From NCBI GenBank assembly GCA_034780895.1, contig JAUZTB010000087.1, positions 6,091,264 through 6,155,263 of the forward strand: a stretch of DNA of 64,000 nucleotides, read 5' to 3'. The position numbers and the translations under genes were made by a program. The notes beneath the pieces are model-generated. The model had not been told where the DNA came from. It saw nothing but the letters and a program-made list of their open reading frames with translations, and did not search any database. How positions within the stretch are numbered: position 1 is the first letter of the stretch; the number at the start of each line of letters is the position of its first letter. Source of the stretch: Rhynchobatus australiae (Eukaryota). Positions 1,471 through 29,158 of this stretch are shown here, piece after piece.

Positions 1471-1658
1471 GGATTTTTTTTGCGAGCATCCACTGGTAAC
1501 TTTGAAAAAAATCAGAAGATGAGCATGAAATGAACCGTGAGATTTATGATTCGGCAGGAGTGTGGAACATCGTGGTTTAAATACTTGAAACATCTAAATA
1601 AAGGGACGATTAATGGTGTCGTCACGTCCTAAAAACGTTGGAATGCTTTACACTGGAA

Positions 1659-4103
1659 ATGAGGTATAAAATATATTGGCTGCTAAAATGTCGATTGCTG
1701 TACTGCGTGTTCTCTTTGTGGAGTATAGTTTCGGGGACGATTCATTATTCAATTCCTGAAGAGCTGCAACTGGGCGCCTTTGTTGGGAATCTAGCAGACG
1801 ATTTGGGTTTAGATATAAAGCAGCTTTCGACTCGAGGTTCTCGGATCGTGTCCGGCCCCAAGAAAGTATATATGGACATCAATTTGGACAATGGAATNNN
1901 NNNNNNNNNNNNNNNNNNNNNNNNNNNNNNNNNNNNNNNNNNNNNNNNNNNNNNNNNNNNNNCATTAGATGTCTTGCTCGAAAACCCCCTCAGACTGTAC
2001 CAGGATTCAGTGGAGATTCTCGATGTAAATGACAATGCTCCCGGTTTCCCGGAGAGCCAAATCCGCCTTGAAATCTCAGAGCTGGCAGCACCGGGAGCGC
2101 GATTCCTTCTCGAGTCTGCGCACGATGCGGATGTTGGAACCAACTCTTTGCAAACGTACAAGCTCCAGCCGAACGAATATTTTTCTCTGGATGTGCAAGT
2201 GCGCAAAGGGAATGAGATGTCACCAGTATTGGTGCTGAAGAGTCCTTTGGACAGAGAAAAAGAATCCGTCCACAAATTAGTTTTGGTAGCAGAAGATGGC
2301 GGGGTACCTTTAAGGTCTGGTAGTGTTCAGCTTACCATCATAGTGAAGGATGCAAACGATAACGTGCCTAATTTCCCTCAGTCGGTTTACAAGGTCAGTC
2401 TATTGGAGTCTGCGCCCAAAGGAACGCTTATTATCAAATTAAACGCGACTGACCTGGACGATGGTCCCAATGGAGACATTATCTACTCGTTCAGCAGCCA
2501 TAATTCTGCTAGAGTACGGAAACTTTTTGATGTTCATTCCAAAACCGGTGAAATCGTATTGAAAGGGAATTTGGATTACGAAGATAGTAGCACCATTGAG
2601 ATTAACATACAAGCAACGGACATGGGCTTGAACTCAATGGCTGTGTATTGTGACGTGTTGTTGGACATTGTGGATGCCAATGATAACGCACCTGAGGTGA
2701 CGCTCACATCCCTATCGAGTACAGTTTTGGAAGATGCACCCAATGGGACGATAGTTGTTCTATTCAGTGTAGAAGACAAGGATTCGGGGCAAAACGGGCA
2801 AGTACAATGTCAAATTTCAAAGGAACTTCCCTTTAGACTCGATTCATCTTTGAAGCATTATTATGGGCTGCTTATTGACCAACAGTTGGATCGCGAAAAT
2901 ACCTCCAGGTATGATGTTGCTGTAACATGCACGGATGCAGGAATCCCTCCTCTCACATCCATGAAAACAGTTCGCGTTGAGGTTTCAGATGTAAATGACA
3001 ATGCACCACGATTTATGCAGCCTATGTACACGGCAAACATCATGGAGAATAATGTTATTGGTGCGGCTATATTACGTTTAAATGCATTTGATCCTGATGT
3101 AGGACAGAATGCCAGATTGAAGTTTTCTATTCTGGAGTCTCAACTTCAGAACAACCAGGCAAATTCCTATGTCTCTATTAACTCAGAGAGTGGCGTCATG
3201 TTTGCTCAGAGATCTTTTGACTACGAACAATTGAAAATCTTCCATATCCAAGTTCAGGTTCAGGATTACGGAGTCCCATCCCTCAGCAGCAACGTTTCAG
3301 TGGAGGTTGTTATCCTTGANNNNNNNNNNNNNNNNNNNNNNNNNNNNNNNNNNNNNNNNNNNNNNNNNNNNNNNNNNNNNNNNNNNNNNNNNCGGTTTGC
3401 AGAACCAGGATACCTAGTCGTCAAGTTATCAGCCACTGATGGTGACAGTGGTCAAAATGCCTTGCTTTCTTTCCAAATTTTTCAGGCTACCCATCATGAC
3501 CTTTTTATTATTTCACCGGAGACTGGCGAAATTTGGACTATCCGTCGAATTATGAGCAAGGATGCCTCGGAGCAAAGGCTGGTGATTGTGGTAAAAGACA
3601 ATGGAACCCCTTCACTTTCGGCGTCTGTGACGATAGTATTGACTGTAGTTGGCACTGACAGTGAAACATTGTCCAGTGTCAACAGTTTCCCTAAAAATTC
3701 CGGGTTCACTCACGATCTTAGCTTCTCCTTGGTCATAACATTTGGGGTAGCATCTATCATTTTCTTTGTTATTTTGCTAATCCTTGTTCTTAAGGTTCAT
3801 AAAAACAGACAAGGATTCGGAGAGCAGCACAGCTCCTGTTGCTGTTTTGGACCAAGAAATTCTCTGAATGGAATTCAAAAAGCCAGTAGAAGCCTGCAGA
3901 TACCTCCGAACTATGTCGAGGTATTCGGGGGCGATCCACTTTCTCAACGATTTCGTTACGAGTCATGTTCAACTTTGCAGTCGACGAACGTCAAAGCATG
4001 TGGGCAATCTGGAGACCATCATTATATGCAGAATGAGTCTTTCAGGAAAAATAAACCTGAAAGGGTGAACTTGGACAATTCAAGCAGCACTGTAAATAAT
4101 GAG
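1659..4103 (+). CDS. PCDH: Clustered protocadherin variable exon V1 (signal peptide, EC1-EC6, TM, variable cytoplasmic domain)
   Basis: ORF 1638-4163 with first ATG at 1659. Shows YSIPEE, repeated DxNDN/LDRE/AxDxG calcium-binding motifs, a hydrophobic TM, a Cys cluster and [16 protein letters not shown]. Ends at a phase-0 donor GAG|GTGAGG (4103/4104); unspliced stop at 4163. Two internal N gaps. Symbol is family-level only. Confidence 0.95.
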
Positions 4104-5426
4104 GTGAGGTCCTCCTTAAAATCAATTAGATATACTCAATTGGTTTGGTTTAGGTATGTTTGAGGATCGCTGAATGGGAATCAATTTTCAGGCTCCTCTT
4201 TTTCATTTTTTGGTTCGATTTCTTCTGAGTACCTCTGTTTCTTCGTTTTAAATCAGGATACGAGTCTGACCAAAAAAAACAGACAATGATGCTTTTCCCC
4301 CTCTGTTTGAATTATCTTCACCAGTGATCTACGTATGTTGAGTCATTGAGCACATTCAAGACAGGGATGGATAGATTTTATATGTACGGCAGAATTAAAA
4401 GTTATGGGGACATAGAGTTAAGGTCCAAAGGTGAGATATGCTATGATCATGATGAATTGTGCAGGGACTGGATGATGTAGTTCAGCTGTTATTTCTGATG
4501 CTCTTTGTGCCCGTATCTCTCTACAGTTGTTCATATTTATTTTTACAAAGATATTATCAAATCTTTTACAGTGCTTTCTGCAGATCCACGTGACTTCATG
4601 GATAGTCTTAAAACACGCCTGAGCATATTTGAATTTCTGCATGTTGAGGTCATCCCAAATGGTCTGTGTGCATTCACGTTTTACCAATGTGATGAAGAAT
4701 TCTCAGCATGACATGCGCAGAACAATTTCCTTGTGAGCAACATTAGATTTCCATTCAGGACTTGCAAACAGGTTATTTAATATCTAAACCTGATGTAAAT
4801 CCAATGACTGGGATTATTTCAATATGGCCACAAATGTTCTTTCCTCTCGTTATGGTTTGAGTAAGTCAAATAACGATACTAATGGCCATGGCATTCTGTT
4901 CGGGAAATAGCTTATATTTTTTTCCTCATATTGTATCAGCCACTGCATCAAGAAAATTAAGTAGGTTATTGCTTTGAGAGATTTTTTGAAGGCGGGGGCT
5001 TCAGATTGAAGTGTCGAATGTTTTGCTTAATAAACGCTTCATTATTCATTTGCTCCAGNNNNNNNNNNNACAGTTGCACCTCGTGTTTGCAAGTGATGAA
5101 CTGAACCTATTTTAACTCATCTTTTCCCTGTCAGCCAAAGTCTATTCTGCTTTCAATCTGTTACCGGTATCATAATTCCCAACGTTTTCCGTTTGCAAAG
5201 TAATTCCAAAATTAGATCATGAAATAGCTATTATGTTGCCATTTGTAAGTGGGTTTAGTGGCAAAATAACCAGAAAAAGTGAGGGTTCATATGAACGTTG
5301 AATATAGGTATATTTTACAGCGAGAGGGAAATATTATTAAATGTATTCGTTATAAGACATTTTCCCACGATTAATTTAGCAAATACGATCATAATTATAA
5401 GGGGAAACGAAGATGGGATTTTCAAC

Positions 5427-5640
5427 TGCACAATTGTAAATGTTAATTTTAACCAAATAATTTGAGAAGACATTGCAGCTTTAAGAAACGCTCAGTGCAA
5501 GGATTGGTTGAACGTGAGGGACTCCGTTGGCCAATCAAGAGCAGCGGTGCGACTGGAGATCTTGACTGCCCCCTTTCCTCCCCATCCACCGTCACAGCCG
5601 ATCAGACACTGTGTAAACCTACATGGCGGACGGCGAAATG
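5427..5640 (+). promoter_or_regulatory. Promoter cassette of V2
   Basis: TGCACAA-TTG-TAAAT, CAGCTTTAAGAAA, GATTGGTTGAA (ATTGG at 5503), CCAATCAA (5531), GCGACTGGAGATCTTGACTGCCCCC, GATCAGA. Confidence 0.8.
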
Positions 5641-5831
5641 TTTGCTTGGTTTATTCGGCTGCTCAAGAGCTTCAGAGAAACAAGAAAAAAATCTCAACGG
5701 CTCGCAACTTCGGTTTCTTGTGCCTTATAACGCTTGTTCACTAAGGAAATGATATATCAAGAAATTAATTTTCAAGACGGAACCAACGGCGCCGTATAGC
5801 GCTGAAGCAATTGGAATGATTTGTGCCGGCG

Positions 5832-8279
5832 ATGGGATATTATCAAATAATTTGGAGGCTAAACTGGCAACTGTTGTATTGTTTTATCTTCGACTGGGCC
5901 GTGGCTTCTGGACAGATTCGTTATTCGATTCCTGAAGAGCTGCAACTGGGCGCCTTTGTTGGAAATATCGCCGACGATCTGGGGCTACGTGCAAATGAGC
6001 TCTCCGCTCGCAATTTTCAGATTGTGCCTGGTTCCCGGATACAGTACTTGGAGGTAAATTTAGACAATGGAATTATGTTTGTTACAGAGAAAATCGACAG
6101 GGAGCAGTTGTGTGGAACGAGCCTCACGTGCATTTTGTCTTTGGAGGCTGTAGTTGAAAATCCTTTGACTGTATATCACATTGAAGTGGAGATTTTGGAT
6201 GTAAACGACAATGCTCCCAGATTCCCAACTAGCCAGTTTCGCCTTAAAATCTCGGAGCTAGCTGCACCGGGAGCGCGCTTTCCCCTGGAGTGTGCACACG
6301 ATCCGGACGTTGGATCCAATTCCCTGCAAACCTACCAGCTGACTGCTAACGAATATTTCGTATTAAATATTGACTCGCGCGGTGGGGACGGTAAGTTGCC
6401 AGTATTAGTGCTCGAACGGCCTATGGATAGAGAAAAGCAAGCGACACATAAGTTGGGACTGCTCGCCAAAGACGGGGGATTTCCTGCCAAGACTGGCACT
6501 GCTGAAATAATAATTGTAGTGCAGGACGAAAACGACAACGCACCCATCTTCCCAAACTCCATTTACAGAATTAGTCTCCGAGAAAATGTGCCCAAAGGAA
6601 CACTGGTTATCAAATTAAATGCCACTGATTTAGATGATGGCTCGAATGGAGACATATTGTACTCATTCAGTAGTCACACGCCTGCTGTAGTCCGTGAAAT
6701 ATTTTCTGTGGATTCTAAAACAGGGGACATCAGAGTGAAAGGAAATTTGGACTATGAGAAAGAGAGTATATTTGAGATTAACGTACAGGCTCTGGACCAG
6801 GGTATTAATCCAAGTGCCGGATACTGTCACGTTGTGGTTAATATTATCGATGTCAATGATAACGCCCCTGAAGTGAAGTTAACCTCTTTATTCAGCCCTG
6901 TCCGTGAAGATTCACCACCCGGGACTGTGGTTGCTCTGATTGGTGTATCGGACCAGGACTCTGGTGAAAATGGGCAGGTCGAGTGTGAAATCACAGCCAG
7001 ACTACCCTTTGTGCTGGATTCATCTTTAAGGAATTATTACAGATTACTTACTCATCAGTTGCTGGATAGAGAAAATACCTCGAGCTATGACATTCCTATC
7101 GTGTGCAGTGATTTGGGGTCTCCTCCTCTCACATCCAGGAAAATCATTACAATGGAAGTTTCGGATATAAATGACAATGCGCCGCACTTTACGCAGCCTT
7201 CCTATACGGCTTACGTGATGGAGAACAACGTCATTGGGGCGTCAATCATCACAGTGACGGCTTTTGATCCAGATTTGAGCAAGAACTCCCAAATATTTTA
7301 CTCAGTTCTGGAAAAACAACTGCTGAACGAGCCCGTGTCCAGTTATATCAGTGTCAATTCCAAAAACGGTGTTGTATTTGCTCAGAGAACTTTCGATTAC
7401 GAGCAACTCAAAAACTTTCAGATCCAAGTCCAGGCCAGGGACTCTGGAGACCCGCCACGCACTGCCACCACTTCGGTGGATATAATTATCCTTGACCAGA
7501 ATGACAACGCCCCAGTGATCGTGCACCCTGCCGCAGAGTATGGCTCAACAGCATTGGAGACAATATCCCGCCTCGCAGAGCCAGGCTACCTGGTCACCAA
7601 GATCACTGCCACGGATGCTGACTCGGGACAGAATGCACGGCTCTCTTACCAGATTCTCCAATCAACTGACGCCGGACTATTCACCATCTCACCTGATACA
7701 GGAGAAATTTGGACAATCCGCGGCTTCGCGAGGAAAGATGCAAACAAGCAAAGGCTGGTTGCTGCGGTAAATGATAATGGGACGCCGTCACTTTCTGCTG
7801 CAATTACTCTCATCTTGTCGGTGGTAGAAGATGATACAGAAATTCTTTCTCGTGTGAACAACTTGTCTGAAGATGCTGGGTTGACCGGTGATATAACCTT
7901 CTACTTTGTTATCGCTTTAGGGATAATCACGTTCACTTTCTTTGTCATTTTAATCGGTCTTGCCATCACCGTCTACAAAAACAGAAATGGTTTTGGCGGC
8001 TATACCTGTTCCCTGGATACATGCTGTTGCTTTCCAGCAAGAACCTCGCTGAATGGCTTCCAAAAGGGCGGGAGAACTCTCCATATACCCCCGAATTATG
8101 TTGAAGTATTTGGGGGCGATCCTCTTTCTCAAAAGTTCCGCTACGGGACCTGCTCCACTTCCCATTCGACAAAGGGAGATTTCTTGTACTCCAACGGGTG
8201 CAGTAATGATGCCGGGGATGAAATTGCGTGCAATAATGAACAGTTACAATCAGCACATTCTAACAATTGTCGCGTGTAA
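5832..8279 (+). CDS. PCDH: Clustered protocadherin variable exon V2 (intact ORF, no canonical 3' donor, ends at in-frame TAA)
   Basis: ORF 5823-8279 with first ATG at 5832. Six EC repeats, EC1 C-X5-C, TM and the [16 protein letters not shown] motif. Ends AAT TGT CGC GTG TAA instead of GAG|GTGAG. Confidence 0.93.
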   Translation: MGYYQIIWRLNWQLLYCFIFDWAVASGQIRYSIPEELQLGAFVGNIADDLGLRANELSARNFQIVPGSRIQYLEVNLDNGIMFVTEKIDREQLCGTSLTCILSLEAVVENPLTVYHIEVEILDVNDNAPRFPTSQFRLKISELAAPGARFPLECAHDPDVGSNSLQTYQLTANEYFVLNIDSRGGDGKLPVLVLERPMDREKQATHKLGLLAKDGGFPAKTGTAEIIIVVQDENDNAPIFPNSIYRISLRENVPKGTLVIKLNATDLDDGSNGDILYSFSSHTPAVVREIFSVDSKTGDIRVKGNLDYEKESIFEINVQALDQGINPSAGYCHVVVNIIDVNDNAPEVKLTSLFSPVREDSPPGTVVALIGVSDQDSGENGQVECEITARLPFVLDSSLRNYYRLLTHQLLDRENTSSYDIPIVCSDLGSPPLTSRKIITMEVSDINDNAPHFTQPSYTAYVMENNVIGASIITVTAFDPDLSKNSQIFYSVLEKQLLNEPVSSYISVNSKNGVVFAQRTFDYEQLKNFQIQVQARDSGDPPRTATTSVDIIILDQNDNAPVIVHPAAEYGSTALETISRLAEPGYLVTKITATDADSGQNARLSYQILQSTDAGLFTISPDTGEIWTIRGFARKDANKQRLVAAVNDNGTPSLSAAITLILSVVEDDTEILSRVNNLSEDAGLTGDITFYFVIALGIITFTFFVILIGLAITVYKNRNGFGGYTCSLDTCCCFPARTSLNGFQKGGRTLHIPPNYVEVFGGDPLSQKFRYGTCSTSHSTKGDFLYSNGCSNDAGDEIACNNEQLQSAHSNNCRV

Positions 8280-8379
8280 CTTTGCTGGTCCATAAATGCA
8301 CATTGTAAACTTTATATGGCCGCGCTGAATTGCTGCAGATAAATGGTCCTTAAAATACGCTTTTCGCTTTTTCTAAACA

Positions 8380-8620
8380 ACACACAAAAAGCTGGAGGAA
8401 CTCGGCGGGTCAGGCAGCATCTATAGAGGGAAATGACCAGTCAACGTTTCAGGATGAGACGCCTCATTAGGACTGGCTGTAGGTTCTCAGCCTATGAAGG
8501 TTCTCGACCCAAAAAATCAGCTGTCCGTTTTCCTCCACAGATGCTGCCTGACCTGATGTTCTTCCAGATTTGTGCCTGTTGCCTCAGATTCCCAGAATCT
8601 GCAGTCTCTTATGTCTCCAT
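8380..8620. mobile_element. Penelope-type terminal-repeat-derived element with internal inverted repeat
   Basis: GCTGGAGGAACTCGGCGGGTCAGGCAGCATCT followed by its inverse CAGATGCTGCCTGACCTG. The same unit recurs many times in the window and flanks Penelope-like coding fragments at ~50.8-51.1 kb. Confidence 0.6.
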
Positions 8621-9080: not shown

Positions 9081-9157
9081 GTGTGTGTGNNNNNNNGTGT
9101 GTCTGTGTGTCTGTGTGTGTCTGTGTCTGTGTGTGTGTGTGTGTATGTCTGTGTCTG
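9081..9157. repeat. (GT)n/(GTGTCT)n microsatellite
   Basis: Directly visible; contains a small N gap. Confidence 0.95.
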
Positions 9158-9304
9158 CGTATACATACGGGGTGTATGTCCAAGTAAAGGTGAACAATCA
9201 ATTAATCATGTAATACGCATGGATTGGATTGGAGTAGACTCGATCAGGTGAATGTCATCGTTATTGGCCATAAACATGTATAATTATATGGATGTTAACA
9301 TAAC

Positions 9305-9830
9305 AGCATAAGAACACGCAGCTTGGTAACAGGAATAGGGCCATTCGTGAGTGCAGCTAGATAGTCCCTCTTTATCTGGTTCCGCCACCACCTCTCTTAT
9401 CAGATAATCTGCAGTCAGTTGTTGTCTCCACTTACTACCGCCCAGCTGCTGACACTCTTTCCACCCCCCTCCCACCCTCCCACCTGACGCCATCTGCCCA
9501 TCAACCCTTCCTCACCTGGATCCACCTGTCGGTCATTAGCTCCCGCGCCACCCCTTCCCCTCATCGTTGTACTGGCTCTCTCCCCTTTACACACTTAGTC
9601 CTGACGCAGTCTCGTTCTGAAACATGGACTATTCCTCTGCATCCAGATATGTTGCTTGACCCGCTGAGTACCTCCAGCAGCTTGTTGTTTGCTTTGGGCC
9701 GTTGAGTGCTTGCCTGCCCCACCATTCAACAAGATCATGGCCGATTATTTATCTCAGTGCCACTTACATGCACCAGCCTCACATGTCNNNNNNNNNNGAT
9801 TGCCTTAACATCTAAAACATCTGAGGAAGA
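9305..9830. mobile_element. Degraded CR1-type 3' tail interrupted by a Penelope-type fragment (~9400-9695)
   Basis: CATAAGAAC..GGCCATTCG and CCACCATTCAACAAGATCATGGC tail pieces flank a C-rich segment ending in CTTGACCCGCTGAGTACCTCCAGCAG. Confidence 0.45.
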
Positions 9831-11400: not shown

Positions 11401-11611
11401 TTGGGTTGCAGCAGTTTTCTTGGATCCATCGAATGCGGATTTTAGCAACAAACTGGAGAGGTTCATGAAGCAAATGCGACCATTTATTGAAAGGAAACAT
11501 ATTCTTCTGCAAGGAAGCCTTTCTTATGAAGGTATACATATTTTTTAATCACAGGACTAAACCGAAAGACACCGTATCGGACCGAAGCCATTGGAATGTT
11601 TAACACCGGCG

Positions 11612-14077
11612 ATGAGATGTTATAATATATTTTGTTTCTTAAAATGGGAACTGTTGTATTACATGCTTATTGCCTGGGAGCGAGCTTTGGCGGAGATTCA
11701 TTATTCTATTCATGAGGAATTGCAGCGAGGCGCCTTTATTGGGAATATTGCAGATGATTTAGGTTTAGATGTTAAACAGCTCGCCGCTCGTAATTTTCGT
11801 CTTGTCTCAGGTGAAACAAAGCAGTATTTGGAAGTGGATTTAAACAATGGGATCTTATTTGTAAAGGAAAAAATTGACAGGGAGGAACTCTGTGGTCCAA
11901 GCCTCACTTGCGTTCTGTCTTTGGAGGCCGTGCTTGAAAATCCTCTCAATCTGTACCAAATCGAGGTGGATATTCTGGACATTAACGACAACTCTCCCAG
12001 TTTTCCAAAAAACCAGATCCGCCTTAAAATCTCTGAGCTTACCGCGCCAGGGGCGCGCTTTCCTCTCGAGTGTGCTCACGATCCGGATATTGGAACCAAC
12101 TCCGTTCAAACCTACCAGTTGGTTGCAAATGAATACTTTGCATTGAATGTTGAAGCTGGAATTGCAGATTGGAAGTTGCCAGTTTTAGTGCTAGAACAAC
12201 CCCTGGACAGGGAGAAGCATTCAACCCACAGACTACTGCTCTTAGCAAAAGATGGCGGGGTCCCCGAAAGGTCAGGCACCGCCCAAATTAACATCGCAGT
12301 GGAAGATGCCAACGATAATGCACCGGTATTCTCTCGGTCGGTTTACAAGAGCAGTTTATTAGAAAATGTGACTAAAGGGACATTAGTGCTGCAAGTAAAT
12401 GCCACTGATTTGGACGATGGTTCAAACGGAGAGGTTCTGTACTCCTTCAGTAGTCATACCTCTGCCAGAGTCCGTGAGATTTTTGGTTTGGATCCTCATA
12501 CTGGCGAAGTAAAACTTAATGCGAATTTAGATTATGAAGAATATAGTACATTTGATATTATTATACAAGCAAAGGACAAGGGCTCTAACCCTGTCCCCGT
12601 GTACAGTCACCTTTTATTGACTATTTTAGATGTAAATGATAACGCACCTGAGATAACCCTAACATCTTTATCAAGCCCATTTCCGGAGGATTCGCCACCT
12701 GGAACTGTAGTAGCTCTAATAAGTGCGTCTGATAGAGATTCTGGCAAGAATGGACAACTCCAGTGCCAAGTAGGAAATAAAGTGCCTTTCACGCTGGATT
12801 CTTCCTCCAAGAAACACTTAAGATTACTCACCCGAGACCTCCTCGACCGTGAATCCACCTCCATGCACAATGTAACGATTACCTGCAGAGATGGAGGAAC
12901 TCCGCCTCTCACCACGAACAAAACCATCCAGATTGAGGTTTCAGACAGAAACGACAACTCCCCACAATTTTCTCAAACTTTGCTCACAGCCTACGTGATG
13001 GAAAACAATAATATTGGTGCCTCTATTTTCTCAGTGACGGCTTTTGATCCCGACCTGGATGAAAATGCTCGGATATCATATGATATTCTTGAAAGTTGGG
13101 TAGGGGGCCAGTCAGTGAGCAATTATATCTATATTATTTCGGAGACTGGTATTATATATTCCTACAGATCTTTTGACTATGAACATTTAAAAACCTTTCA
13201 AATCCGGGTTCAGGCACGTGACCATGGAGTCCCATCACTTTCCAGCAATGTTTCCGTAGATGTCATCATCCTTGACCAGAATGATAACGCCCCAGTGATC
13301 GTTCATCCATTAACCGAGCATGGGCCAACGACCACAGAGGTTGTATCGCGATTCGCTGAAGCAGGCTATCCAGTGACCAAAGTTACGGCTACAGATGCCG
13401 ACTCGGGGCAAAATGCTCGCCTCTACTATCGGATCCTCCAAGCTACTGACTTAGGACTATTTACTATTGCAGAGGACACCGGAGAAATCTGGACAACTCG
13501 TGCTATTGCAAAGACCGATACAACCAAACAGACGTTGGTTGTCCAAGTGAGTGACAATGGGACACCAGCACTTTCTGCTTCAATAACTATTATTTTGTCA
13601 TTGATCGATGGCGAGGAATCGTTATTGTCTGACAGGAACAGCATGTTGCAAGGGCCCAACTTTGCTTCTGTAACCAGCCTGTACTTGGTGATTTCATTAG
13701 GAATAATTTCGTCCATTTTTCTGGTGATTTTAATTATACTAGCTGTTAAAGTTCACAAAAGCAGAAATGTGTTTGAGGACCACGGTTGTGTACTGGGCTC
13801 CTGTGGTTGCTTCGGTACAAGACAATCACTCAATGGAATTCAGAAAGCCAGCCGCAGTCTTCACATTCCTCCCAACTATGTTGAAGTATTTGGGGGTGAT
13901 CCGCTTTCACAAAGTTACCGCTATGAGACTTGTTCCATGGCACGTTCAACAAAGGGAGACTTCCCGTTCCCAAACACCAACGGTTCATCGAAGGGAAAGA
14001 ACACAGCCTCCGATGGGACTATTGCAAATGGAGGAAGTGTATTATTCACGAATTGTGGGAAGTCTGCTCATTCCGAG
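11612..14077 (+). CDS. PCDH: Clustered protocadherin variable exon V3
   Basis: ORF 11591-14113 with first in-frame ATG at 11612. Six EC repeats, TM and the cytoplasmic motif. Phase-0 donor GAG|GTGAGA at 14077/14078. Confidence 0.95.
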
Positions 14078-15740: not shown

Positions 15741-15955
15741 GTTCTAACATTCAGTTCTTTACGTTCATCTTTTGGCGAAATTTGAAGAAATAAGAAGGTT
15801 TGTCAGAATCGTTACGTAGAATTTTTAAGCAGAACGTTTGGTTTTTATGCAATTCAGCTGTATTACTCAAATGGAATCATAATTTACTCTTTTTAGCAGG
15901 AATTATTCAACGACGCCGCGTTGTTCTCAATCATTTGAAATGCTTTGTGCTGGAA

Positions 15956-18400
15956 ATGGAATTTTATAAATTATATTGGCTAATGAAATGGCAACTTTTA
16001 TATTGTATTATCCCTTCCTGGCAACTAATTTCTGGACAGATACGTTATTCGATTCCTGAAGAATTGAATGCCGGCGCCTTTGTTGGGAACATCGCAGAGG
16101 ACCTGAATTTGGATATTAAAGAACTCTCAGCTCGCGGTTTTCAAATTGTGCCTGGTCCCAGCAAGCAGTATATAGACGTAAATTTAGACAATGGGGTTTT
16201 GTTTGTGAGGGAAAAAATGGACAGAGAACAGTTGTGTGGGCTGAGCCTCGCTTGCACGTTATCTTTGGAAGCGGTGATTGAAAATCCTCTAAATGTGTAT
16301 CATTTTCAAGTGGACATTTTGGATGTAAATGACAATGCCCCGAGTTTTCCAGAGAGTCGGTTCAATTTGGAAATATCAGAGGTGGCTGCTCCAGGAACGC
16401 GCTTCGCTCTGGAGTGCGCACAGGACCCGGACGTTGGAACCAACTCTGTACAGAGCTACCAGCTAGTAGACAATCTCTATTTCTCCCTCGATGTTGAGAC
16501 GCGGGGTGGCGACGGAAAGTTACCGGTTTTAGTCTTGGAAAGACCGCTGGACAGAGAAAAGGAAAGTACACACCGGTTGGTGTTAATAGCTAAGGACGGA
16601 GGGATTCCTGAGAGATCTGGCACTGCTGAAATAATGATCGCTGTAGAGGATGCCAATGACAACGCGCCGGTTTTCCCCCAGCCGGTCTACAGGGTCAGTT
16701 TGCAGGAGAATTCACCCAAAGGAACGTTAGTGATCAAACTGGATGCCAAAGATTTGGATGCTGGACTCAATGGGCAGATCGTGTATTCGTTTAGTAGTCA
16801 CACTTCCAATAGAGTTCGTGAAATATTTGGGCTGGATTCTAAATCTGGGGAAATCAGAGTTAAGAACAATCTGGACTACGAGGAAAACAGTGTTTTTGAA
16901 ATTAACATCCAAGCAAAAGATAAAGGTCCTAACGCAACTCCTGTGTACTGTCACGTGGTGGTTAACATTGTTGATGTGNNNNNNNNNNNNNNNNNNNNNN
17001 NNNNNNNNNNNNNNNNNNNNNNNNNNNNNNNNNNNNNNNNNNNNNGGACTGTGGTGGCTCTGATCAGTTCAATAGACAAGGATTCGGCTGACAACGGGCA
17101 CGTGGATTGCGAAATCCCAAGAGACCTTCCATTTAAACTGGATTCATCCTTAATTAACTACTATAGGCTGGTTACCCGGGAGACATTGGATCGTGAACGT
17201 GTATCAACCTACAATGTAACCATCGTGTGCAGCGACGCCGGGATTCCTCCACTGACATCCAACAAAACGATCCTGGTGGAGGTCTCGGATACAAATGATC
17301 ACCCACCTCAGTTTACACAGCCTATATATACAGCATATGTGATGGAGAATAACGCCATTGGTGCATCCATATTCTCTGTGACTGCTTTAGATCAAGATTT
17401 AAACAGGAACGCCCATCTGTCCTATTTTATTTTGGAGACTCAGATTCAGGGCATGTCAGTATCCACGTATGTTTCGATTAACTCGCACAGTGGTGTCATA
17501 TTTGCGCAGAGAAGTTTCGACTACGAGCATCTCAAAAACTTTCAGATCCAGGTTCAGGCACGGGACTCTGGATCCCCACCACTTTCTGGAAATGCTACAG
17601 TGGATGTGGTTATCTTGGATCAGAACGACAATGCTCCCGTGATAGTGCATCCATTACCCGAATTCGGTTCTACTGTGTTAGAAACCATATCCCGGCTCGC
17701 AGAACCGGGTTACCTGGTTGCCAAGGTTTCTGCTACGGACAGTGACACTGGCCAGAATGCTCGCCTTGCCTACCAGATTCTCCAAGCCACTGACGTCGGT
17801 CTCTTTACCATTTCACCGGACACGGGAGAAATCTGGACAATACGCAGTATTCGGAAGAATGACGCCGCGAAGCAAAGGTTGGTCATCTGCGTAAAGGACG
17901 ATGGATCACCGCCACTTACAGCCACAGTGACAATCATCTTGTCTTTAGTTGGAAATGATAGACAAATGCTGTCAGAAGTGAATAGCTTGTCTGAGGATGC
18001 CGGGTCTGCCTCTGAGACCAGCTTTTACCTCGTAATAGCTTTAGGGGTTACCTCGTCTGTTTTCCTAGTGATTTTGATTATCCTCGCCATTAAAGTCCAT
18101 AGAACCTCTTCTCTTGGCGCATGTGGTTGCTTTACAGCTGGAAACTCACTACATGGAATCCACAGAGGCAAAAGAAGCCTTCAGATACCACCAAACTATG
18201 TTGAGGTGTTTGGGGGTGATCCACTTTCTCAGAGCTTCCGCTATGATTCATGTTCAAGTTCACATTCTGTAAAGAGGGATGTCAGGTTGTCCAACAGTGG
18301 ATCTACGCGTAAGAATTATGCTCCTAGTGGCTTTTTGGGAAATGGCGATACCTTACAAACCCCCAATTCTGCGCAGTACAGGAACACTGTAAATAATGAG
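15956..18400 (+). CDS. PCDH: Clustered protocadherin variable exon V4
   Basis: ORF 15800-18469; the ATG at 15956 aligns with paralog starts (MEFYKLYWLMKWQLL). Six ECs and TM. Phase-0 donor GAG|GTGAGG at 18400/18401. One internal N gap. Confidence 0.95.
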
Positions 18401-19350: not shown

Positions 19351-19560
19351 AACGCCGGAACGGGTTTTGTATTCGAAAACACTGGATATTTTAATTACAA
19401 TGAAAAGGTTCGAACAAAATATCAATAATCTTTGAAAAATACAGGTACTTTATGCAACATTGCCTCTTTTATCTTTAAAACTGGCATTTGTAGAATCTTA
19501 TTCAAGAAAATCGGTGAATGGCGTGTCGCGCTGAAGTAATTGCAATGCTTTGTGCAGGAG

Positions 19561-22005
19561 ATGGGATATTCTAAAATATATTGGCGGTTAAAATGGTCAC
19601 TTTTTTACGTTGTGTTATCATCCTGGGTTCTGGTTTCGGGACAGATTCGCTATTCAATTCCTGAAGAGCTGCAACTGGGCGCCTTTGTTGCGAATATCGC
19701 AGACGATTTGGATTTAGACGTGAAAGAGCTGGCTGCCCGCAGTTTTCGGATTGTGTCTAAACCCAGGAAGCAGTATCTTGATGTAAATTTGGACAATGGA
19801 ATTCTTTATGTAAAGGGGAAAATTGACAGGGAGCAGCTCTGCGGGTCGAACCCCGCGTGCACATTGTTCTTAGAGGCCGTGATCGAAGATCCGCTAACCG
19901 TGTATCATTTTCAAGTCGAAATTCTGGATGTAAATGACAACGCCCCCAGTTTCCCCCAAACCCAATTCCGCTTGGAAATCTCAGAGATTGTGGCACAAGG
20001 AGCGCGCTTTGCCCTCGAGTCTGCGCATGACCCAGATGCTGGAGTCAACTCCGTACAGACGTACCAGTTGAACGATAACGAGTATTTCACGATAGACGTG
20101 CAGTCACGCCGTGGAGATGGCAAGTTACCGGTGTTAGTGTTGCAAAGGCTACTAGACAGGGAAAAGCAAAGGATCCATAAGTTAGTCCTGATTGCCAAAG
20201 ACGGAGGCATCCCTGAAAAATCTGGGACGGCGCAAATAATCGTCATAGTGCAGGACGCGAATGACAACGCGCCGGTGTTCCAGCAATCGGAATATAGGAC
20301 GAGGCTGCTGGAAAATACACCCAAAGGAACACTGGTAATCAAACTAAATGCTACTGATTTAGATGATGGCCCCAATGGGGAGATTGTGTACTCCTTCAGT
20401 AGCCATGCTTCCAACAGAGCCCGTGAGATGTTCAGTGTGGATTCCAGAACCGGCGAAATCAGGGTCAAAGGGAATTTGGACTACGAGGAAAACGATGTTT
20501 TTGAGGTCAACGTACAAGCGACGGACAAGGGGCCTTATGCAACTCCTGTACATTGTGAAGTGTTGGTGGACGTTATTGACATCAATGACAACACACCTGA
20601 GGTGACATTGACTTCTATATTCAGTCCTGTCAGTGAGGACGCCTTGCCCGGGACAGTGGTCGCCCTGTTTAACGTGAATGACCAAGACTCGGGAGATAAT
20701 GGGCAGGTACATTGCCAAATTTTAAGTGGATCTGCTTTCAAATTGGATTCCTCTTTGACCAACTATTACAGATTACTAACGGAGCAAAGGCTGGATCGCG
20801 AAAACATCTCAAATTACGATGTTACAATCGTATGCAGTGATAGCGGAACTCCCCCTCTCACATCCAAAAAATCCATCCGGGTGGAGATTTCCGATATAAA
20901 TGATAACGCGCCACGTTTTACGCAATCTTCATACACAGCCTACGTAACGGAGAACAATGCTATTGGGTCTTCTATCTTCTCAGTGACTGCCATTGATCCG
21001 GATGCAAACCAGAACTCTCAGCTGTCTTACTCTATCATGGAAACATGGGATCAGGTCTTGCCAGTATCCACTTACGTGAATATTCATTCGGAAACTGGTG
21101 TCATCTATGCTCAGAAGTCATTTGACTACGAACAGCTGAAAAACTTTCAGATCTGTGTCCGAGCACAGGACTCTGGGTCTGTTTCACTGGGCAGCAACGT
21201 TTCAGTAGATGTCATTATCCTCGATCAAAATGACAATGCCCCAGTTATCATTCATCCACTGCCAGAATATGGCTCTACAGTGACGGAGACTGTGTCGAGG
21301 TTCACTGAGCCCGGTTACCTTGTCGCCAAAGTATCTGCAACCGACGCAGACTCTGGCCAGAATGCTCGCCTCACTTACCAGATTTTCAAAGCTACAGACT
21401 CTGGACTTTTTACGATTTCCTCAGACTCGGGGGACATATGGACAATCCGTGGCGTCCTGGACAAAGATCTTAGGAAGCAACGTTTGGTCGTTGTTGTAAA
21501 AGACAACGGGGAGCCGGCACTTTCAGCTACAATAACCATTATTATCTCCTTGGAACAGAGTAAATCAGAGTTGCTGTCTGAGGTGGACAGTTTATCTGAA
21601 GAATCAGTTCTGGCTCCGGACACGAGCTTTTATTTGGTCATAGCCTTGGGATTAATTTCTTTCGTCTTTCTCGCAATTTTGGTTGTGCTCGCCATTAAAG
21701 TTCACAGAAACAGACGGGGTTTTGATGATCGTAACTCCTGCTGTTTTGTGGCAAGAAGTCAAAAGACGAGTCGGAGCCTTCAGATACCCCCAAACTATGT
21801 TGAAGTGTTTGGAGGCGACCCACTTTCTCAGAGTTTCCGCTATGATACGTGCTCCACTACACACACTATCAAGGGAGACTACGTGTTCCGCCACACGTGC
21901 AGCTCACCTGCGGGCAAAAATAACGTCAGTGTCTACCCTGTTGGGAAAGACGAGATTCTACCAGTATTAAACTCTACAAGCTGCAGAAACACTGACTATA
22001 GTGAG
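19561..22005 (+). CDS. PCDH: Clustered protocadherin variable exon V5
   Basis: ORF 19540-22221 with first ATG at 19561. Six ECs, TM and the cytoplasmic motif. Phase-0 donor GAG|GTGAGA at 22005/22006; the ORF-track extension beyond this is intron and N gap. Confidence 0.95.
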
Positions 22006-22424
22006 GTGAGAAGCGTTTCCAAAGGTGGGGGGCACAGCNNNNNNNNNNNNNNNNNNNNNNNNNNNNNNNNNNNNNNNNNNNNNNNNNNNNNNNNNNNNNN
22101 NNNNNNNNNNNNNNNNNNNNNNNNNNNNNNNNNNNNNNCACGTTTGATTTGGATACATGTCAAGATCTCAACTGGTGGAAATGAAAAGATGGGATTCCCA
22201 TCTATTCTGGACTTTTCCTGATCATCGTCTCTGCACCAGGCTCAATGACTTCATCGTTTTATTTTAATTTATGTGCCAGCCAGTAAATTTATAGTTGTTG
22301 CTATTTCGCATAAAATTATTGTGAATTGTATATATTTTGCAGATTATAATGAAATTGCAGTAGGAATACCAATATTTTATGACAGTATAATGATAGGTTG
22401 CTGTTCGGCTTTCTAACAAAGAAG

Positions 22425-22630
22425 ATCTCCAGAAATTCAAACGGAAACTGCTGAAAACAGTCAGCAGGTCAGGCGGCATCTGCGGAAACAAAATAAATCA
22501 GATCTGACCAAGGGTCTTCGACCTTAAGCGTCAAATCTGCTTCTTTTTGCACAGATGCTTCCTGGGCTATTGCTGTTTCCAACAATTTCTGCTTTTATTT
22601 CAGATTTTCAGCATCTGCAGTTTTGGTGTT
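22425..22630. mobile_element. Penelope-type inverted-repeat element
   Basis: CAGCAGGTCAGGCGGCATCTG ... CAGATGCTTCCTGG ... CAGCATCTGCAG; same family as 8380-8620. Confidence 0.55.
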
Positions 22631-22840
22631 TTTCAAAACAAAGCAGGAATACGTTTTATATTGGATACCATGAGTGTTATTGAAGGATCAGACGTTGCTC
22701 TGCCATCTAAAGATAAATGACAATAAACACCACCAGAAATGTCGACATCTTGACAGCAAGTTTTGATTTATCCTCCTAGAATGTTTTGCAGAAGGAATAA
22801 GTTTAATATGTTGAAAGAAAGGGAGGGTAAATATTTTTAA

Positions 22841-23040
22841 GTGTACAACTATAAATACCGCAGCGGTTTTCAAGGCCGCTCTAGCTTTAAGCAGTGCTAA
22901 AGCAGTGATTGGTTGAATGCGGAAATGCACACGTTCACCAATCAGAAGCCAGAAGTTGGCTGGAGATCTCTCCCTATCCACCATCACGTAAGATCAGCTA
23001 CAGTGTAAAAATGGACAGCAAGCCGCGTAATGCTGCATTA
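22841..23040 (+). promoter_or_regulatory. Promoter cassette of V6 (TGACTGCCCC sub-box deleted)
   Basis: GTGTACAA-CTA-TAAAT, TAGCTTTAAGCAG, TGATTGGTTGAA (22908), CACCAATCAG (22938), GGCTGGAGATCT followed directly by CTCCCTATCCACCAT. Confidence 0.78.
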
Positions 23041-23234
23041 GGATCCGAGTATGCATCTTTGGATGATTTTAGAAATAAGAACATTTGCCTTAGTTAATGT
23101 CTGGATTTTCAAATTGTGCAGGTATTTTTTTACAACTGAAAGCTCTGTAAAATTATATAGAAAGACGTTTATTAAGACGGTTTCGCGAACGGAGCAGGGC
23201 TGCGCTGAAGCATTTGAAATGATTTTCGCTGGAA

Positions 23235-25709
23235 ATGGGATATTGTAGAATATATTGCTTGAGAAAATGGCATCTGCTATACTGTCTATTCTCCTTCTGC
23301 GGTCTAGTTTCGGGACAAATTCGTTATTCCATTCCCGAAGAACTGCAACTTGGCGCCTTTGTTGGTAATATCGCAGACGATATGGGTTTGGATGTGAAAG
23401 AACTCTCAGCTCGAAATTTTCGCGTCGTTCCGGGTCTCGGGAAAAAATATTTGGACGTAAATTTAGACAATGGGATTTTGTTTGTGAAGGAAAATATTGA
23501 CAGAGAACTGCTTTGTGGGTCGAGTCTTACTTGCCTTTTATCAATGGAAGCTGTGATTGAAAATCCTTTAAATGTCTATCGGATTGAAGTGGAGGTTTTG
23601 GATATAAATGACAACGCTCCCAATTTTCCAAAGAGTCAGTTCCGTTTAGAAATCTTTGAAGTGGCGGCCCCGGGTGCACGTTTCCCCCTTGAGTGCGCTT
23701 ACGATTCGGACGTGGGAACCAACTCCCTACAAAACTATCGCCTGGTTGGAAATCAATACTTCGCGCTCGACATTGAGACCCGCAGTGGGGATGAGAAGCT
23801 GCCAGTGCTAACGCTGGAGAGGGCACTGGATAGAGAGAAAGAAGCAACTCACAAGTTGCAACTAATTGCCGAGGACGGCGGGATCCCTCCGAGGTCCAGC
23901 ACTGCTGAAATACTAATCGCAGTGCAGGATGCCAACGACAACTCTCCCGTGTTCTCCCAGTCAGTGTATAGGGTCAGCCTGAATGAAAATGTGCCCAAAG
24001 GAACACTTGTTATCAAGCTTAATGCGACTGACTTGGATGATGGTTCTAATGGGGATATTGAGTATTCCTTTACAAGCCATACATCGGCAACAGTACGTGA
24101 ACTGTTTGATCTGCATTCCAAAACAGGGGAAATCAAAGTGAAGGGGAATTTGGACTATGAGGTAAATAGTGCCTTTGAGATCAATGTTCAGGCAATGGAC
24201 AAAGGCTCAGCTCCAGTACCTGCGTACTGCCGTGTTCATGTGGATATTATTGACGTGAATGATAACGCTCCTGAGGTGATGGTGACCTCTCTGTTCAGTC
24301 CAATTGGCGAAGGCTCTCCCCCGGGGACTGTGATAGCGCTGGTTAGTACTACAGACAAAGACTCCGGAAAAAACGGTGAGGTTGATTGTCAAATCCCAAA
24401 TAACCTTCCATTTAAGCTGAATTCGCCCTTAATAAATTATTACAAGTTGTTAACCGTGGACCAATTGGATCGGGAAAACATCCCCAAGTATGACGTCACT
24501 CTACTATGTCGTGACTCAGGCTCGACTCCTCTTACTTCCAAGAAAACCATGCAGATCGAGATCTCAGATGTAAATGACAACTCACCTCGTTTTAGCCAAT
24601 CCTCGTACACAGCCTATGTGATGGAGAACAACGTCATCGGAGCCTCTGTCGTATCAGTGACAGCCACAGACGCTGATTTGAACCAGAATGCTAAACTATC
24701 ATTTTCCATTCTGGAAAGTCAGGTCCAGAGTGAGTCTGCAGCCAACTACGTTTACATTAATTCAGAGAATGGAATCGTTTTTTCTCAAAGAAGTTTCGAC
24801 TACGAGGAACTCAAAAGCTTCAATTTCCAGGTTCAAGCACAGGACAGCGGAATCCCACCACTCACCAGCAACGTTTCGGTGGACGTTGTTATCCTTGACC
24901 AGAACGACAATGCCCCAGTGATTCTGCACCCACTACCTGAACGTGGGTCAACCGTCCTAGAAACAATGTCCCGCTCTGCGGAGCCGGGTTATCTGGTTAC
25001 TAAAGTCTCTGCCATGGATGCTGACTCGGGCCAGAATGCTCGCCTCTCTTATCAGATTGTCCAGGCTACTGACCCAGGACTTTTCACCATTTCACCTGAC
25101 ACGGGCGAAGTGTGGACCATCCGTCGCCTGGTGGAGAAGGATGCGACGAGGCAAAAGTTAACGATTGTGGTAAAAGACAATGGAACGCCGCCGCTTTCAG
25201 CTTCCATGACCATCAGCTTGTCCGTGGTCGATGGGGATGCCCAGCTGTTTTCTGGTGTCACAGAGTTGGACGATGAGGCGGCTTTCAAGTCTGCGTTGAG
25301 TTTTTACTTGGTGATATCTTTGGGGGCAATTTCTTCCATCTTTCTGCTGATCTTAATCATCCTCGCTGTGAAGGTCCATAAAAGCAGGAGTGGATTTGGT
25401 GTTTACAGTTGTTACGGGGACATCTGCTGCTGTTATAAATCAAGACGCTCTCTCAGCGGCATTCAGAAAGCTAGCAGAAACATTCAGATACCTCCGAATT
25501 ATGTGGAGGTATTCGGAGGCGATCCGCTTTCTCAAAGCTTTCGCTATGGAACCAATTCAACGATAGCTTCTACCAAGAGAGATTACCCGATTCCCAATAC
25601 GTGTAGTTCGTCTGCAGTGACAAATAAAGGCGGGGGTGGGCCTAATGAGAAATGCAAATACCTGCACTCCCAGGCTCCTGAAAATTGTAGAAACTCTGTA
25701 AACACTGAG
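23235..25709 (+). CDS. PCDH: Clustered protocadherin variable exon V6
   Basis: ORF 23235-25754. Six ECs, TM, Cys cluster and [20 protein letters not shown]. Phase-0 donor GAG|GTGAGG at 25709/25710. Confidence 0.95.
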
Positions 25710-26431
25710 GTGAGGTGTTCCTTAAGAAGGGAAATAGATACCTCACAAGTTTGATATGGTTGCATCTATTTGCAGTAGAACATATTGCTGACATTTTCTG
25801 TTTGGTGATATGAAGTTCCGTGTGATATCTACAACTCATAACCACAAAGCATTTTACTTTTAGTCAAACTATCTGAGTATTCTATGGCGATTCTTTTTGA
25901 AGGAGCCAGGCGTTATTTATGATTCAGGCATTGTCGTCGCCGAAGGATGGTTCAGCTAATTTAAAACATGACAAATTTAGGGAAATAGTTTTAGAGAATC
26001 TTAATGAATCTATGGCATATGTGAAATAATACCCAACCATCAACGCACTAATCTTTTCATAGTATTGTTTGAAGAATGTGGTACATATACAACTGCACTA
26101 AATGTAAATATAATCCTGGTAATATCGTGGCATCCGTGTTTTGTAACTGATTTCTTGCTGGTCAGTTCTTGCATTTCTTGCACGGTTCAGAGGTCAGTGC
26201 GAGTATCAAAACTACCTGAAATAGTCAGACAGGCGAATGTAACATATTTAGAAGAATACTGAAGCAGTTCAATTGGGAGAACTGACTGGTCAAGGGAACA
26301 TGTAATTATTTTACAAGCAAAGCATAAATAGATGGTCTTTAATTTCTCCTCTTTGAAAGCTTCTTGAAAACTATTTGAGCGGGATATTTAAATATCTGAA
26401 CGAGTGATAATGGAGGCAGGTTCAAATTTAG

Positions 26432-26642
26432 ATTGCGCAACTATAAATATTGCTTTCCAAAGCCCGATAAAGTGTGTCAGCTTTAAGAAATTAGGTCTCT
26501 TGTGATTGGCTGAAGGCGAATGCCGCTCCACTCACCAATCAGAAGCTGAATGGTGACTGGAGATCCTGACGGCCCTTGTCCCTGCCTCTCCGCCATCATA
26601 TCTGATCCGATGCAACATGAAACTGGATAGCGAGCTGCCTGA
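26432..26642 (+). promoter_or_regulatory. Promoter cassette of V7
   Basis: ATTGCGCAA-CTA-TAAAT, CAGCTTTAAGAAA, TGATTGGCTGAA (26505), CACCAATCAG (26535), GTGACTGGAGATCCTGACGGCCC, CCGCCAT, GCGAGCTGC. Confidence 0.8.
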
Positions 26643-26845
26643 GAATGTATCAGAATCGTGATTTTACAAGATTTGGGAAGATTTGACTGCAAATACAAAA
26701 TCTCGAAGATTTGTCACAACTGCAGGTATTTTCTTATAATGGAGCGCCTTATTTGGGATTTTAAAACATGATAACCACTTTATTCCAGTGAATAAATGAG
26801 CAGCGCCGTGACGTGCTGATACATTCGGAATGCGTTGTGCCTGAA

Positions 26846-29158
26846 ATGGGATTGTATAAAATATATTGGTTGTTAAAATGGCAACTGTTGTGTTTAGTGC
26901 TCTCCTGGAATCTGGTTTCTGGACAGATACGTTATTCGATTCCCGAAGAATTGCAGCTGGGCGCCTTTGTTGGGAATATCGCAGCTGATTTGGGTTTAGA
27001 TGCGGAGCAGCTCTCGGCTCGGAATTTTCGGATTATGCCCAGTCCCAGGAAACAGTATCTCTATGTGAAACTAGACAAAGGGATTTTAATTGTGAACCAG
27101 AAAATTGACAGAGAACAGATCTGTGGTTCAGCCCCCGGTTGCGCCCTGACTTTGGAGACCGTCATTGACGACCCTCTGAATGTGTATCACATCGAGGTGG
27201 AGATTCTAGACATAAATGACAACGCTCCCCAGTTCCCAAAGAATGAGTTCCGTTTGGAAATATCCGAGTTGGCAGCGCCTGGATCCCGCTTCCCATTGGA
27301 GTCTGCGTATGATCCGGACGTCGGCACCAACTCGCTGCAGACCTACCGATTGGCCACAAATCAATATTTCGTGCTGGATGTACAGTCTCGCAGTGGGGAT
27401 AGTAAGCTCCCGGTTCTGGTAATGGAAAGAACCCCTGATAGGGAGCATCAGTCCACTCTACAGTTGCTGCTGACGGCTCTTGACGGAGGCATTCCTGAAC
27501 GGTCTGGCACCGCACAGATCATAATCCGCGTCCTGGACGCCAATGATAACGTGCCTACGTTTAGCCAGGCGCTTTATAGAGTCCGTCTGTTGGAAAATGT
27601 GCCCTTAGGAACGCTGGTGATCAAAGTCAACGCCACTGATCTTGACGAAGGTTCCAATGGAGAGATAGCTTATTCCTTTGGAAGCCACGCTTCTGCCAAA
27701 GCGCGGGAACTGTTCAGCGTCGACCCGAACTCCGGAGAGATCAGGGTGAAAGGACCTCTGGACTTCGAAACGGGAACAGAGTTGGAGATTAGTGTACAAG
27801 CTGAGGACAGGGGTTTCCCTTCTGTGCCCGTGCATTGCGATGTGCTTGTTCAAATCGTGGATGTGAACGATAACGCGCCAGAGGTGGCAGTAACCTCTTT
27901 GTCCAGCTCAGTCGCCGAAGATGTCCCGCCTGGGACTGTGGTGGCCTTAATCAGTGTGACCGATTCAGACACGGGAGAGAATGGAGAAACCCGCTGCCAG
28001 ATTCCAAACAGCCTTCCTTTCAAATTAGATTCGACGTTTGCGAACTACTATCGATTACTCACCAAAGATTTGCTCGATCGGGAATTGGTTTCCCAATATG
28101 GGATCACCATTTCGTGCAGCGATGCAGGATTGCCCGCGCTTACCACGAACAAAACCATTCAGCTAAAGATCTCAGATGTAAATGACAACCCTCCACATTT
28201 CTCGCAGACGTTGTACACCGCCTATGTGACGGAGAACAATGTCGTTGGCAGTTCCGTCTACTCAGTGCTAGCTTCTGATGCAGATGTAAATCAAAATTCC
28301 AAACTGTCTTATTCTATTCTTCAGACTCAGGTCGGTAGTTCTCCAGTATCTGGTTACGTTTCTATAAATTCAGATAACGGTATAATATCTGCTGAGCGTT
28401 CTTTTGACTACGAAGAATTGAAGAACTTTCAGATTGAGGTCCAAGCAACGGACGCCGGAGAGCTACCGCTCAGCACCAATGTCTCAATCAATGTGGTCAT
28501 CCTGGATCAGAATGACAACGCGCCGGTGATTGTATCCCCAAGGCCCGAGTACGGTTCGACAGCAGCGGAGACATTGTCCAGATCAGCAGAACCAGGTTAT
28601 CTGGTGACCAAAGTGTCTGCTGTCGATGCAGATTCGGGGCAGAATGCAAGACTTACTTATCAATTGGCCCAAGTCACGAACCCTGGTCTTTTCACCATTG
28701 CGCCTGACACAGGAGAGATATGGACAATCCGCCGAGTTGTGAATGAAGATGCAACTAAACAACGCTTAGTAGGTGTGGTAAAGGATAATGGGATCCCGCC
28801 ACTTAAGGCCACAATTAATATCATCTTAACACTGGAGGGCAGTGACGCAGAACTTCTCTCAGAACTGAGTGGCCTCAGTGAAGAACACGGATTCCCTTCG
28901 GACATAAGCCTTTACTTGGTCATAGCTCTGGGAACAATCTCCTCTGTTTTCCTCGTGATTTTAGTTATCCTAGCTGTTCAGGTCTACAGAAGCAGAAACG
29001 TTTTTAACCGCCGCAGCTGCGCTTTGGGCACATGTTGTTGCATGAGTTCAACACATTCTCTTAATGGAATACAAAAAGCCAGTGTAAACCTTCAGATCCC
29101 CCCGAATTATGTTGAAGTGTTTGGCCGTGATCCGCTGTCCCAGAATTGTTGTTACGAG
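26846..29158 (+). CDS. PCDH: Clustered protocadherin variable exon V7 (last variable exon seen, shortened cytoplasmic segment)
   Basis: ORF 26813-29173 with first ATG at 26846. Six ECs and TM. In-frame candidate donor GAG|GTACGT at 29158/29159 and unspliced stop at 29171-29173. The paralog-type donor GAG|GTGAGG at 29262/29263 is out of frame. The 3' boundary is inferred. Confidence 0.88.

Follow-up and report, generated by a model that had tools for sequence, protein, structure and literature searches.

Nearly all variable exons of one clade of clustered protocadherins (nu4-17-like) in Rhynchobatus australiae were found to share a conserved upstream ATG (uATG), placed exactly 16 nucleotides (nt) before the main start codon and out of frame with it. 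The analysis centered on a window of 64 kb, positions 6091264-6155263 of contig 87 (C87) in the 2.2-Gb genome, which contains the last seven variable exons (V1-V7) of the chondrichthyan protocadherin-nu subcluster. Among the paralogs, the uATG, the G at its -3 position, and the 16-nt spacing are under purifying selection, while the peptide encoded by the upstream open reading frame (uORF) is not. The -16 ATG probably acts as a conserved inhibitory upstream AUG (uAUG), with the main protein made by leaky scanning past it; judged from the sequence, this interpretation was given a probability of roughly 0.6.

The coordinates of all seven uATG/main ATG pairs reported in an earlier note on this DNA were confirmed, as were the out-of-frame spacing of 16 nt, the G at -3, the occurrence of GGAATG in four of the seven exons (V1, V2, V3, and V7), and, by re-reading the sequence, the uORF peptides of V1-V6 including the 39 codons of V2. 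The uORFs of the window, each beginning with the uATG at -16, are as follows.

1643..1669, + strand: V1 uORF, MLYTGNEV then stop, overlapping the main start at 1659 (exon 1659-4103)
5816..5935, + strand: V2 uORF, 39 codons, overlapping the main start at 5832
11596..11625, + strand: V3 uORF, MFNTGDEML then stop; main start 11612, exon to 14077
15940..15969, + strand: V4 uORF, MLCAGNGIL then stop; main start 15956, exon to 18400
19545..19574, + strand: V5 uORF, MLCAGDGIF then stop; main start 19561, exon to 22005
23219..23248, + strand: V6 uORF, MIFAGNGIL then stop; main start 23235, exon to 25709
26830..26844, + strand: V7 uORF, MRCA then stop, not overlapping, its stop 1 nt before the main start at 26846; RNA-like contigs use the donor at 29159

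The note had described the uORF as overlapping the true start everywhere, which holds for six of the seven exons but not for V7. It had also assigned the -16 uATG to every variable exon. Starts of the same clade were sought in the window and the preceding 200 kb, where 23 nu4-17-like starts were found. An out-of-frame ATG at -16 was present in 22 of them, always with G at -3; these include the pseudogene 5967006, which was counted after realignment to its mutated start ATA. The main frame is open in 15 clade copies, 14 of which carry the uATG, and the +4 position of the uATG is never G in these 14 genes. Of the 22 uORFs, 21 overlap the main start: 18 of these stop at +11 or +14, and the other three are long. 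The exception is V7, whose uORF stops at -1. Elsewhere in the cluster, where the search for exons gives a lower bound, a start could be read in 32 of 33 rows, and none of these 32 other exons has an ATG at -16. The claim therefore stands for the nu4-17-like clade but not for the rest of the cluster. A tight pattern of the element had seven matches, all inside the cluster, and none in the control.

Selection was assessed by counting parsimony changes on a tree of 20 paralogs, with 45 four-fold sites as the baseline. Three paralogs with N runs or a broken start (5967006, 5988764, and 6081931) were excluded from the tree, and all three carry the uATG. The A, T, and G of the uATG had 0, 1, and 0 changes, compared with a mean of 5.27 per four-fold site (P=4.5e-5, uncorrected). 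Among the 185 triplets in -230..-1, the uATG was the only one with at most one change (P of about 0.02 when corrected for the leader search). When the range was extended to -340..-1 (286 triplets), the uATG shared this degree of conservation with only the CCAAT box and the GAT within the promoter element. Neighboring positions at -13, -12, -9, -8, and -7 each had 5-6 changes. The earlier note had proposed an alignment of the uATG against its flanking bases; on the paralogs of this genome, the uATG was indeed more conserved than its flanks.

The conservation profile around the uATG resembles that around the true start, with -3 fixed and -2, -1, and +4 variable: changes at -3, -2, -1, A, T, G, and +4 numbered 0, 3, 2, 0, 1, 0, and 6 for the uATG, and 0, 4, 2, 0, 0, 0, and 2 for the main ATG. 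Initiation efficiency is set by positions -3 and +4, according to the available text of PMC8892498. No alignment gaps occurred in -35..-1, compared with 42 gap patterns in -230..-36; by eye, a single additional base was noted upstream of the uATG in the pseudogene 5948668. The note had described the leader farther upstream as poorly alignable, and -230..-36 is diverged, but a promoter block at -330..-230 is conserved. Within this clade, the distance of the CCAAT box from the main ATG floats between -282 and -317. Because this distance varies while the 16-nt spacing is fixed, the element is anchored to the main ATG and not to the promoter.

The same conservation could arise if the -35..-1 block were a DNA element (a downstream promoter or transcription-factor site) or a site for an RNA-binding protein, in which the ATG is incidental. 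This is the main rival explanation, possible though unlikely. It agrees with the lack of indels in the block, with further conserved columns at -33, -27, -11, and -6, with a similar GAATG about 240 nt past the CCAAT box in two other groups of the cluster (at -10 in 8/10 exons and at -25 in 3/3), and with the retention of the ATG in broken paralogs. Conserved "leader" sequences elsewhere have also turned out to be promoter elements (PMC9456764, in the part available). However, positions -2, -1, and +4 of the uATG have changed repeatedly while -3 and the ATG stayed fixed, the distance to the CCAAT box varies by 35 nt while that to the main ATG is constant, and no consensus RNA structure was predicted (0 pairs among 11 aligned sequences). 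As a specific candidate of this kind, the note had named a TEAD-like GGAATG. The TEAD (M-CAT) consensus is GGAATG followed by T or C. Such a site was rejected as a poor fit: GGAATG occurs in 15/22 copies and the full GGAATGY in only 3/22, and a DNA site of the GGAATG type would need -2 and -1 to be fixed.

The claim of a conserved short uORF did not hold beyond its start codon. Coding selection on the peptide was not observed, as its length ranges from 4 to 52 codons, codons 2-4 are variable, and no codon periodicity was found, and the stop shows no significant selection. These observations also bear on two other proposals. In the first, the uORF would be a coupling device, where 8-9 codons are translated and ribosomes stopping 11-14 nt past the main AUG slide back and reinitiate, so that the uORF delivers ribosomes to the main start. 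The 18 uORFs that end at +11 or +14 do so via differing codon pairs (Tyr-Lys, Tyr-Asn, Ser-Lys, and Cys-Arg), which speaks for coupling, as does the end of the V7 uORF at -1. Nevertheless, conservation of the stop was not significant, and in two intact genes, V2 and 6065817, the uORF extends to 39 and 52 codons. Backward reinitiation is also inefficient on cellular mRNAs, and coupling was considered very improbable. In the second, the main frame would carry a cryptic N-terminal extension (L-K-x-L-E-C-F-x-L-E-M) started from a near-cognate CTG/TTG at -30. The main-frame reading is similar from rays to chimaera, and the G at -33, three bases before the -30 codon, never varies. On the other hand, the "Cys" codon is TGA in 16/23 paralogs, the -30 codon itself varies (3, 2, and 3 changes), and conservation shows no codon periodicity in either frame, which leaves this proposal with hardly any credibility.

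Conservation in other cartilaginous fishes was evaluated at the protein level, by means of database proteins whose predicted main-frame sequence includes the leader. There were 17 distinct informative read-through proteins from 10 species, and all 17 fit the ATG: Pristis (2), Hypanus, Narcine, Heptranchias, Pristiophorus (3), Rhincodon, Cetorhinus, two Scyliorhinus species, and Callorhinchus (5). Residue -5 is Cys in 15 and Trp in 2, while residue -6 is Glu in 9, Lys in 5, Gly in 2, and Gln in 1, all of which can be encoded with a final A. In this genome, the main-frame codon at -15..-13 is TGA, TGC, or TGT. Since residue -5 is always Cys or Trp, a TG fixed at -15/-14 with a free next base is implied, and an A at -16 is compatible with the residues observed. 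The TG is retained in chimaera, sharks, and rays, and the presence of the ATG itself across these groups is indirectly supported by these predicted sequences. The split between chimaera and the sharks and rays dates to roughly 400 million years ago. A search with the leader-extended N-terminus of V4 gave no matches, nor did metagenome scans.

The ATG, ancestral in the nu leader, might also have no function and owe its persistence to common descent, gene conversion, or hitch-hiking on the start-codon context. A recent expansion at 5.97-6.08 Mb inflates the raw count of 22/23, the statistic was picked after the pattern had been seen, and one intact gene lacks the ATG. Yet the counts on the tree allow for relatedness, the neighboring positions changed 5-6 times, and the result survives the correction for the leader search. 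In addition, the TG is kept in chimaera, sharks, and rays, and gene conversion is reported to be limited in the elephant shark clusters, as far as the available text of PMC2764143 goes. Absence of function was accordingly regarded as improbable.

The promoters of the window were located as follows.

1361..1430, + strand: V1 promoter block, with CCAAT at 1361, GxGATCy about 24 nt on, and a pyrimidine-rich/CCACC stretch
5531, 11302, 15641, 19244, 22938, and 26535, + strand: CCAAT starts of the equivalent aligned blocks of V2-V7

None of the sequencing runs listed was recorded as RNA. However, two runs, X1 and X2, left 10 and 11 of the 30 bins empty, and every empty bin lay outside exons and repeats, while X4 and X5 covered 30/30. 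Pieces from X1 and X2 end at 4107, 25713, and 29160, which correspond to splice donors plus the bases that these would have in common with a constant exon beginning Val-Lys. These features hint that the X1/X2 contigs behave like RNA. The RNA-like pieces cross -16 unspliced into the coding sequence for V2-V7, the V1 leader being outside the pieces listed. Nine of the ten 5' ends listed lie at -207 to -290, just past the CCAAT box, and one lies at -336. This suggests that transcripts begin about 200-290 nt upstream and include the uATG, although the contigs do not constitute a start map. A donor-like CAGGTA occurs near -113 in the V5-V7 leaders (e.g., at 23120); with regard to a possible leader intron at this site, no spliced leader was found among the contig pieces listed.

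Immediately before the CCAAT box, a CGCT-type element (GTGTCGCTG/GTGTCGCTA) was present in 13/13 promoters of the 5.15-5.31 and 5.58-5.63 Mb groups (L023, L022, L049, L029-L032, L036, L039-L041, L044, and L046). By eye, most nu4-17-like promoters (e.g., 1330-1365) have a degenerate version of it or, in its place, a second CCAAT box in reverse orientation. Little promoter-bound CTCF may be involved in the choice of the nu4-17-like genes.

If the -16 ATG is an inhibitory uAUG, it would capture, out of frame, some of the 40S subunits that are scanning or reinitiating, and the protein would derive mainly from ribosomes leaking past it. Its context is moderate, with a purine at -3 and no G at +4, so it would act as a fixed dimmer and not as an on/off gate. 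Ribosomes stopping at +11 or +14 would already be beyond the main AUG and largely lost, and as they would terminate 2.4 kb ahead of the first exon junction, nonsense-mediated decay (NMD) might be triggered as well. Such an arrangement might serve to hold each isoform at a low and similar level. In yeast reporters, out-of-frame uATGs at -30..-3 reduce both output and mRNA, the latter via UPF1, with weaker effects nearer the main AUG, and competition between the two AUGs fades at about 17 nt (PMC9743702, in the part available).

Several observations weigh against this interpretation. The rest of the -35..-1 block is itself moderately conserved (about 3.4 changes on average in the other columns), and the G at -33 and the A at -27 are invariant, which a uAUG alone leaves unexplained. 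Conservation of the wobble base of the uORF stop was not significant, as it had one change and 16% of 49 two-fold sites were as good. All eight frame-broken clade copies retain the -16 uATG, where the age of breakage is not fixed and some copies may be assembly errors. Other ATGs are frequent in -230..-17, numbering 79 in the 23 leaders at varying positions, and 36 of the 79 have a purine at -3; with 2-5 such uATGs in each leader, many ribosomes would be diverted before reaching -16. The intact paralog 5955365 (C87) has AGG at -16, yet its coding sequence is open, its promoter is intact, and its private nonsynonymous/synonymous ratio is low (13/15). Because its promoter is intact, the loss of the uATG in this gene counts against necessity. 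The X1 and X2 runs come from one study of a relative about 4-5% diverged and were labelled RNA only as a guess, X1 being marked "probably DNA"; one X1 contig bridges the entire V6-V7 gap, so unspliced intergenic RNA is included. For the read-through proteins, the A at -16 is a wobble base and not seen directly, copies of the TGA type cannot show, and 6/17 are biased, having come from a profile that included the motif. Among the rows dropped from this comparison, eight were judged to be predicted splice-ins (unverified) and four had extensions of fewer than 4 residues; the dropped P0138 rows at 3304 and 4182 are counter-examples if they are genuine read-throughs.

The other leader ATGs were mildly depleted (79 versus 99.8 +/- 7.8 in shuffled leaders, the paralogs not being independent), which is usual for 5' leaders, and the -16 ATG is retained all the same. 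The leader of 5955365 (5955072-5955365) contains a tandem duplication of about 119 nt and has AGG instead of the uATG, and this intact gene is a natural control. A decayed promoter in this gene was considered and rejected, as the promoter is intact but lies about 120-130 nt further upstream through the leader duplication. The earlier note had proposed a cluster-wide translational dampener or gate. A selected uAUG acting as a dampener is the reading best supported by the sequences, but it extends to one clade only, within which one intact paralog has no uATG. The word "gate" is too strong, given that the uATG is dispensable in 5955365 and that so many other uATGs occur in the leaders.

Two other groups of the cluster have ATGs near the start in the same frame as the -16 ATG, both about 240 nt from the CCAAT box. 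An ATG at -10 was found in 8/10 exons of the 5.15-5.31 Mb group (5153641-5308274), in weak context and with long overlapping reading frames, and an ATG at -25 was found in 3/3 exons of the 5.58-5.63 Mb group (5580791-5631191). These are possibly homologous to the -16 ATG. The signal at -10 is weak, with 2 changes over three bases versus 2.07 per four-fold site, a pyrimidine at -3, and equally conserved flanks. A broader proposal, in which a near-start out-of-frame AUG (at -16 in nu4-17, and at -10 and -25 in the two other groups, in one frame) is ancestral in several cartilaginous-fish subclusters, sets subgroup-specific translation tunable by start-codon stringency and NMD, and possibly has a bony-vertebrate counterpart, is speculative and was held to be rather doubtful.

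V1-V7 are clustered protocadherin nu variable exons, i.e., tandem single large exons (signal peptide, cadherin repeats, and transmembrane segment) upstream of shared constant exons, and they are orthologous to Callorhinchus nu. V6 shares 97% identity with a Pristis protein across 200 residues, and named Callorhinchus nu proteins are among the relatives. In the protein tree, V1-V7 and the upstream paralogs that could be included form one clade with Callorhinchus nu4-nu17, a subcluster known in the elephant shark (PMC2764143, PMC2926608, and PMC7811963), while exons at 5.84-5.89 Mb cluster with nu2. According to the available part of PMC2764143, the nu subcluster has no bony-vertebrate ortholog. 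One constant exon was identified, and a first constant exon was not found within the window.

46817..47050, + strand: nu constant exon, 95% identity to the tail of Pristis protein P0004

Two nu types alternate in a recent expansion at 5948668-6081931 of C87; of the 16 starts that precede the window, 8 have a disrupted main frame and represent either pseudogenes or errors of assembly. For V7, either of two positions, 29159 and 29263, could serve as the donor, and the frame is closed by a stop after 775 codons; it is at 29159 that the RNA-like contigs end, which shortens the variable cytoplasmic part. High-copy short repeats with very high contig depth lie between variable exons at 22450-22625, 8380-8620, and 9490-9750.

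Several known systems resemble the nu leaders in part. In ATF4, uORF2 is out of frame, overlaps the main start, and is preceded by short uORFs, as in the nu leaders. Unlike in ATF4, the upstream uORFs of the nu leaders are not conserved in position, and because delayed reinitiation could not discriminate between two AUGs just 16 nt apart, a stress switch is unlikely; an ATF4-type reinitiation switch was rejected on these grounds. The Hox paralogs (PMC8892498, Ivanov et al. 2022) are likewise a tandem developmental family with conserved uAUGs of sub-optimal context that lower translation of the main frame. Function, CAGE starts, and sensitivity to eIF1/eIF5 are demonstrated there, in the part of the paper available, whereas an inhibitory effect of the nu uAUG is predicted; the nu uAUG also differs in its single fixed distance of 16 nt in 22 paralogs and in a context that is moderate and not poor. 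In the yeast library of Li et al. 2022 (PMC9743702, in the part available), protein and mRNA are likewise reduced when an out-of-frame uATG lies within 30 nt. That library is synthetic, while the nu pair is natural and selected, and its 16 nt falls at the edge of the competition window of about 17 nt. For the elephant shark nu subcluster, which comprises the same host genes, the available parts of PMC2764143, PMC2926608, and PMC7811963 describe the organisation and the CGCT/CSE and NRSE elements, but not leader AUGs. No report of a uORF in clustered protocadherins was found in the literature searched, with most subscription journals and the original description of the elephant shark cluster outside its reach. 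Conserved inhibitory uORFs in a tandem family are already known from Hox (PMC8892498), and the protocadherin case appears to be new within the literature searched.

The reach of the finding is limited in that mechanisms of this class are well known and bony vertebrates lack the subcluster. Natural controls exist within the family, including a paralog without the uATG, one non-overlapping uORF, and two long uORFs. The diversity of clustered protocadherins has so far been explained almost entirely by promoter choice. Preservation of a start codon at a single spacing through some 20 duplications, in chimaera as well as in sharks and rays, points to selection on the amount of protein made from each chosen isoform. 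If this were true for several subclusters, it would add a translational layer to neuronal identity codes beyond promoter choice.

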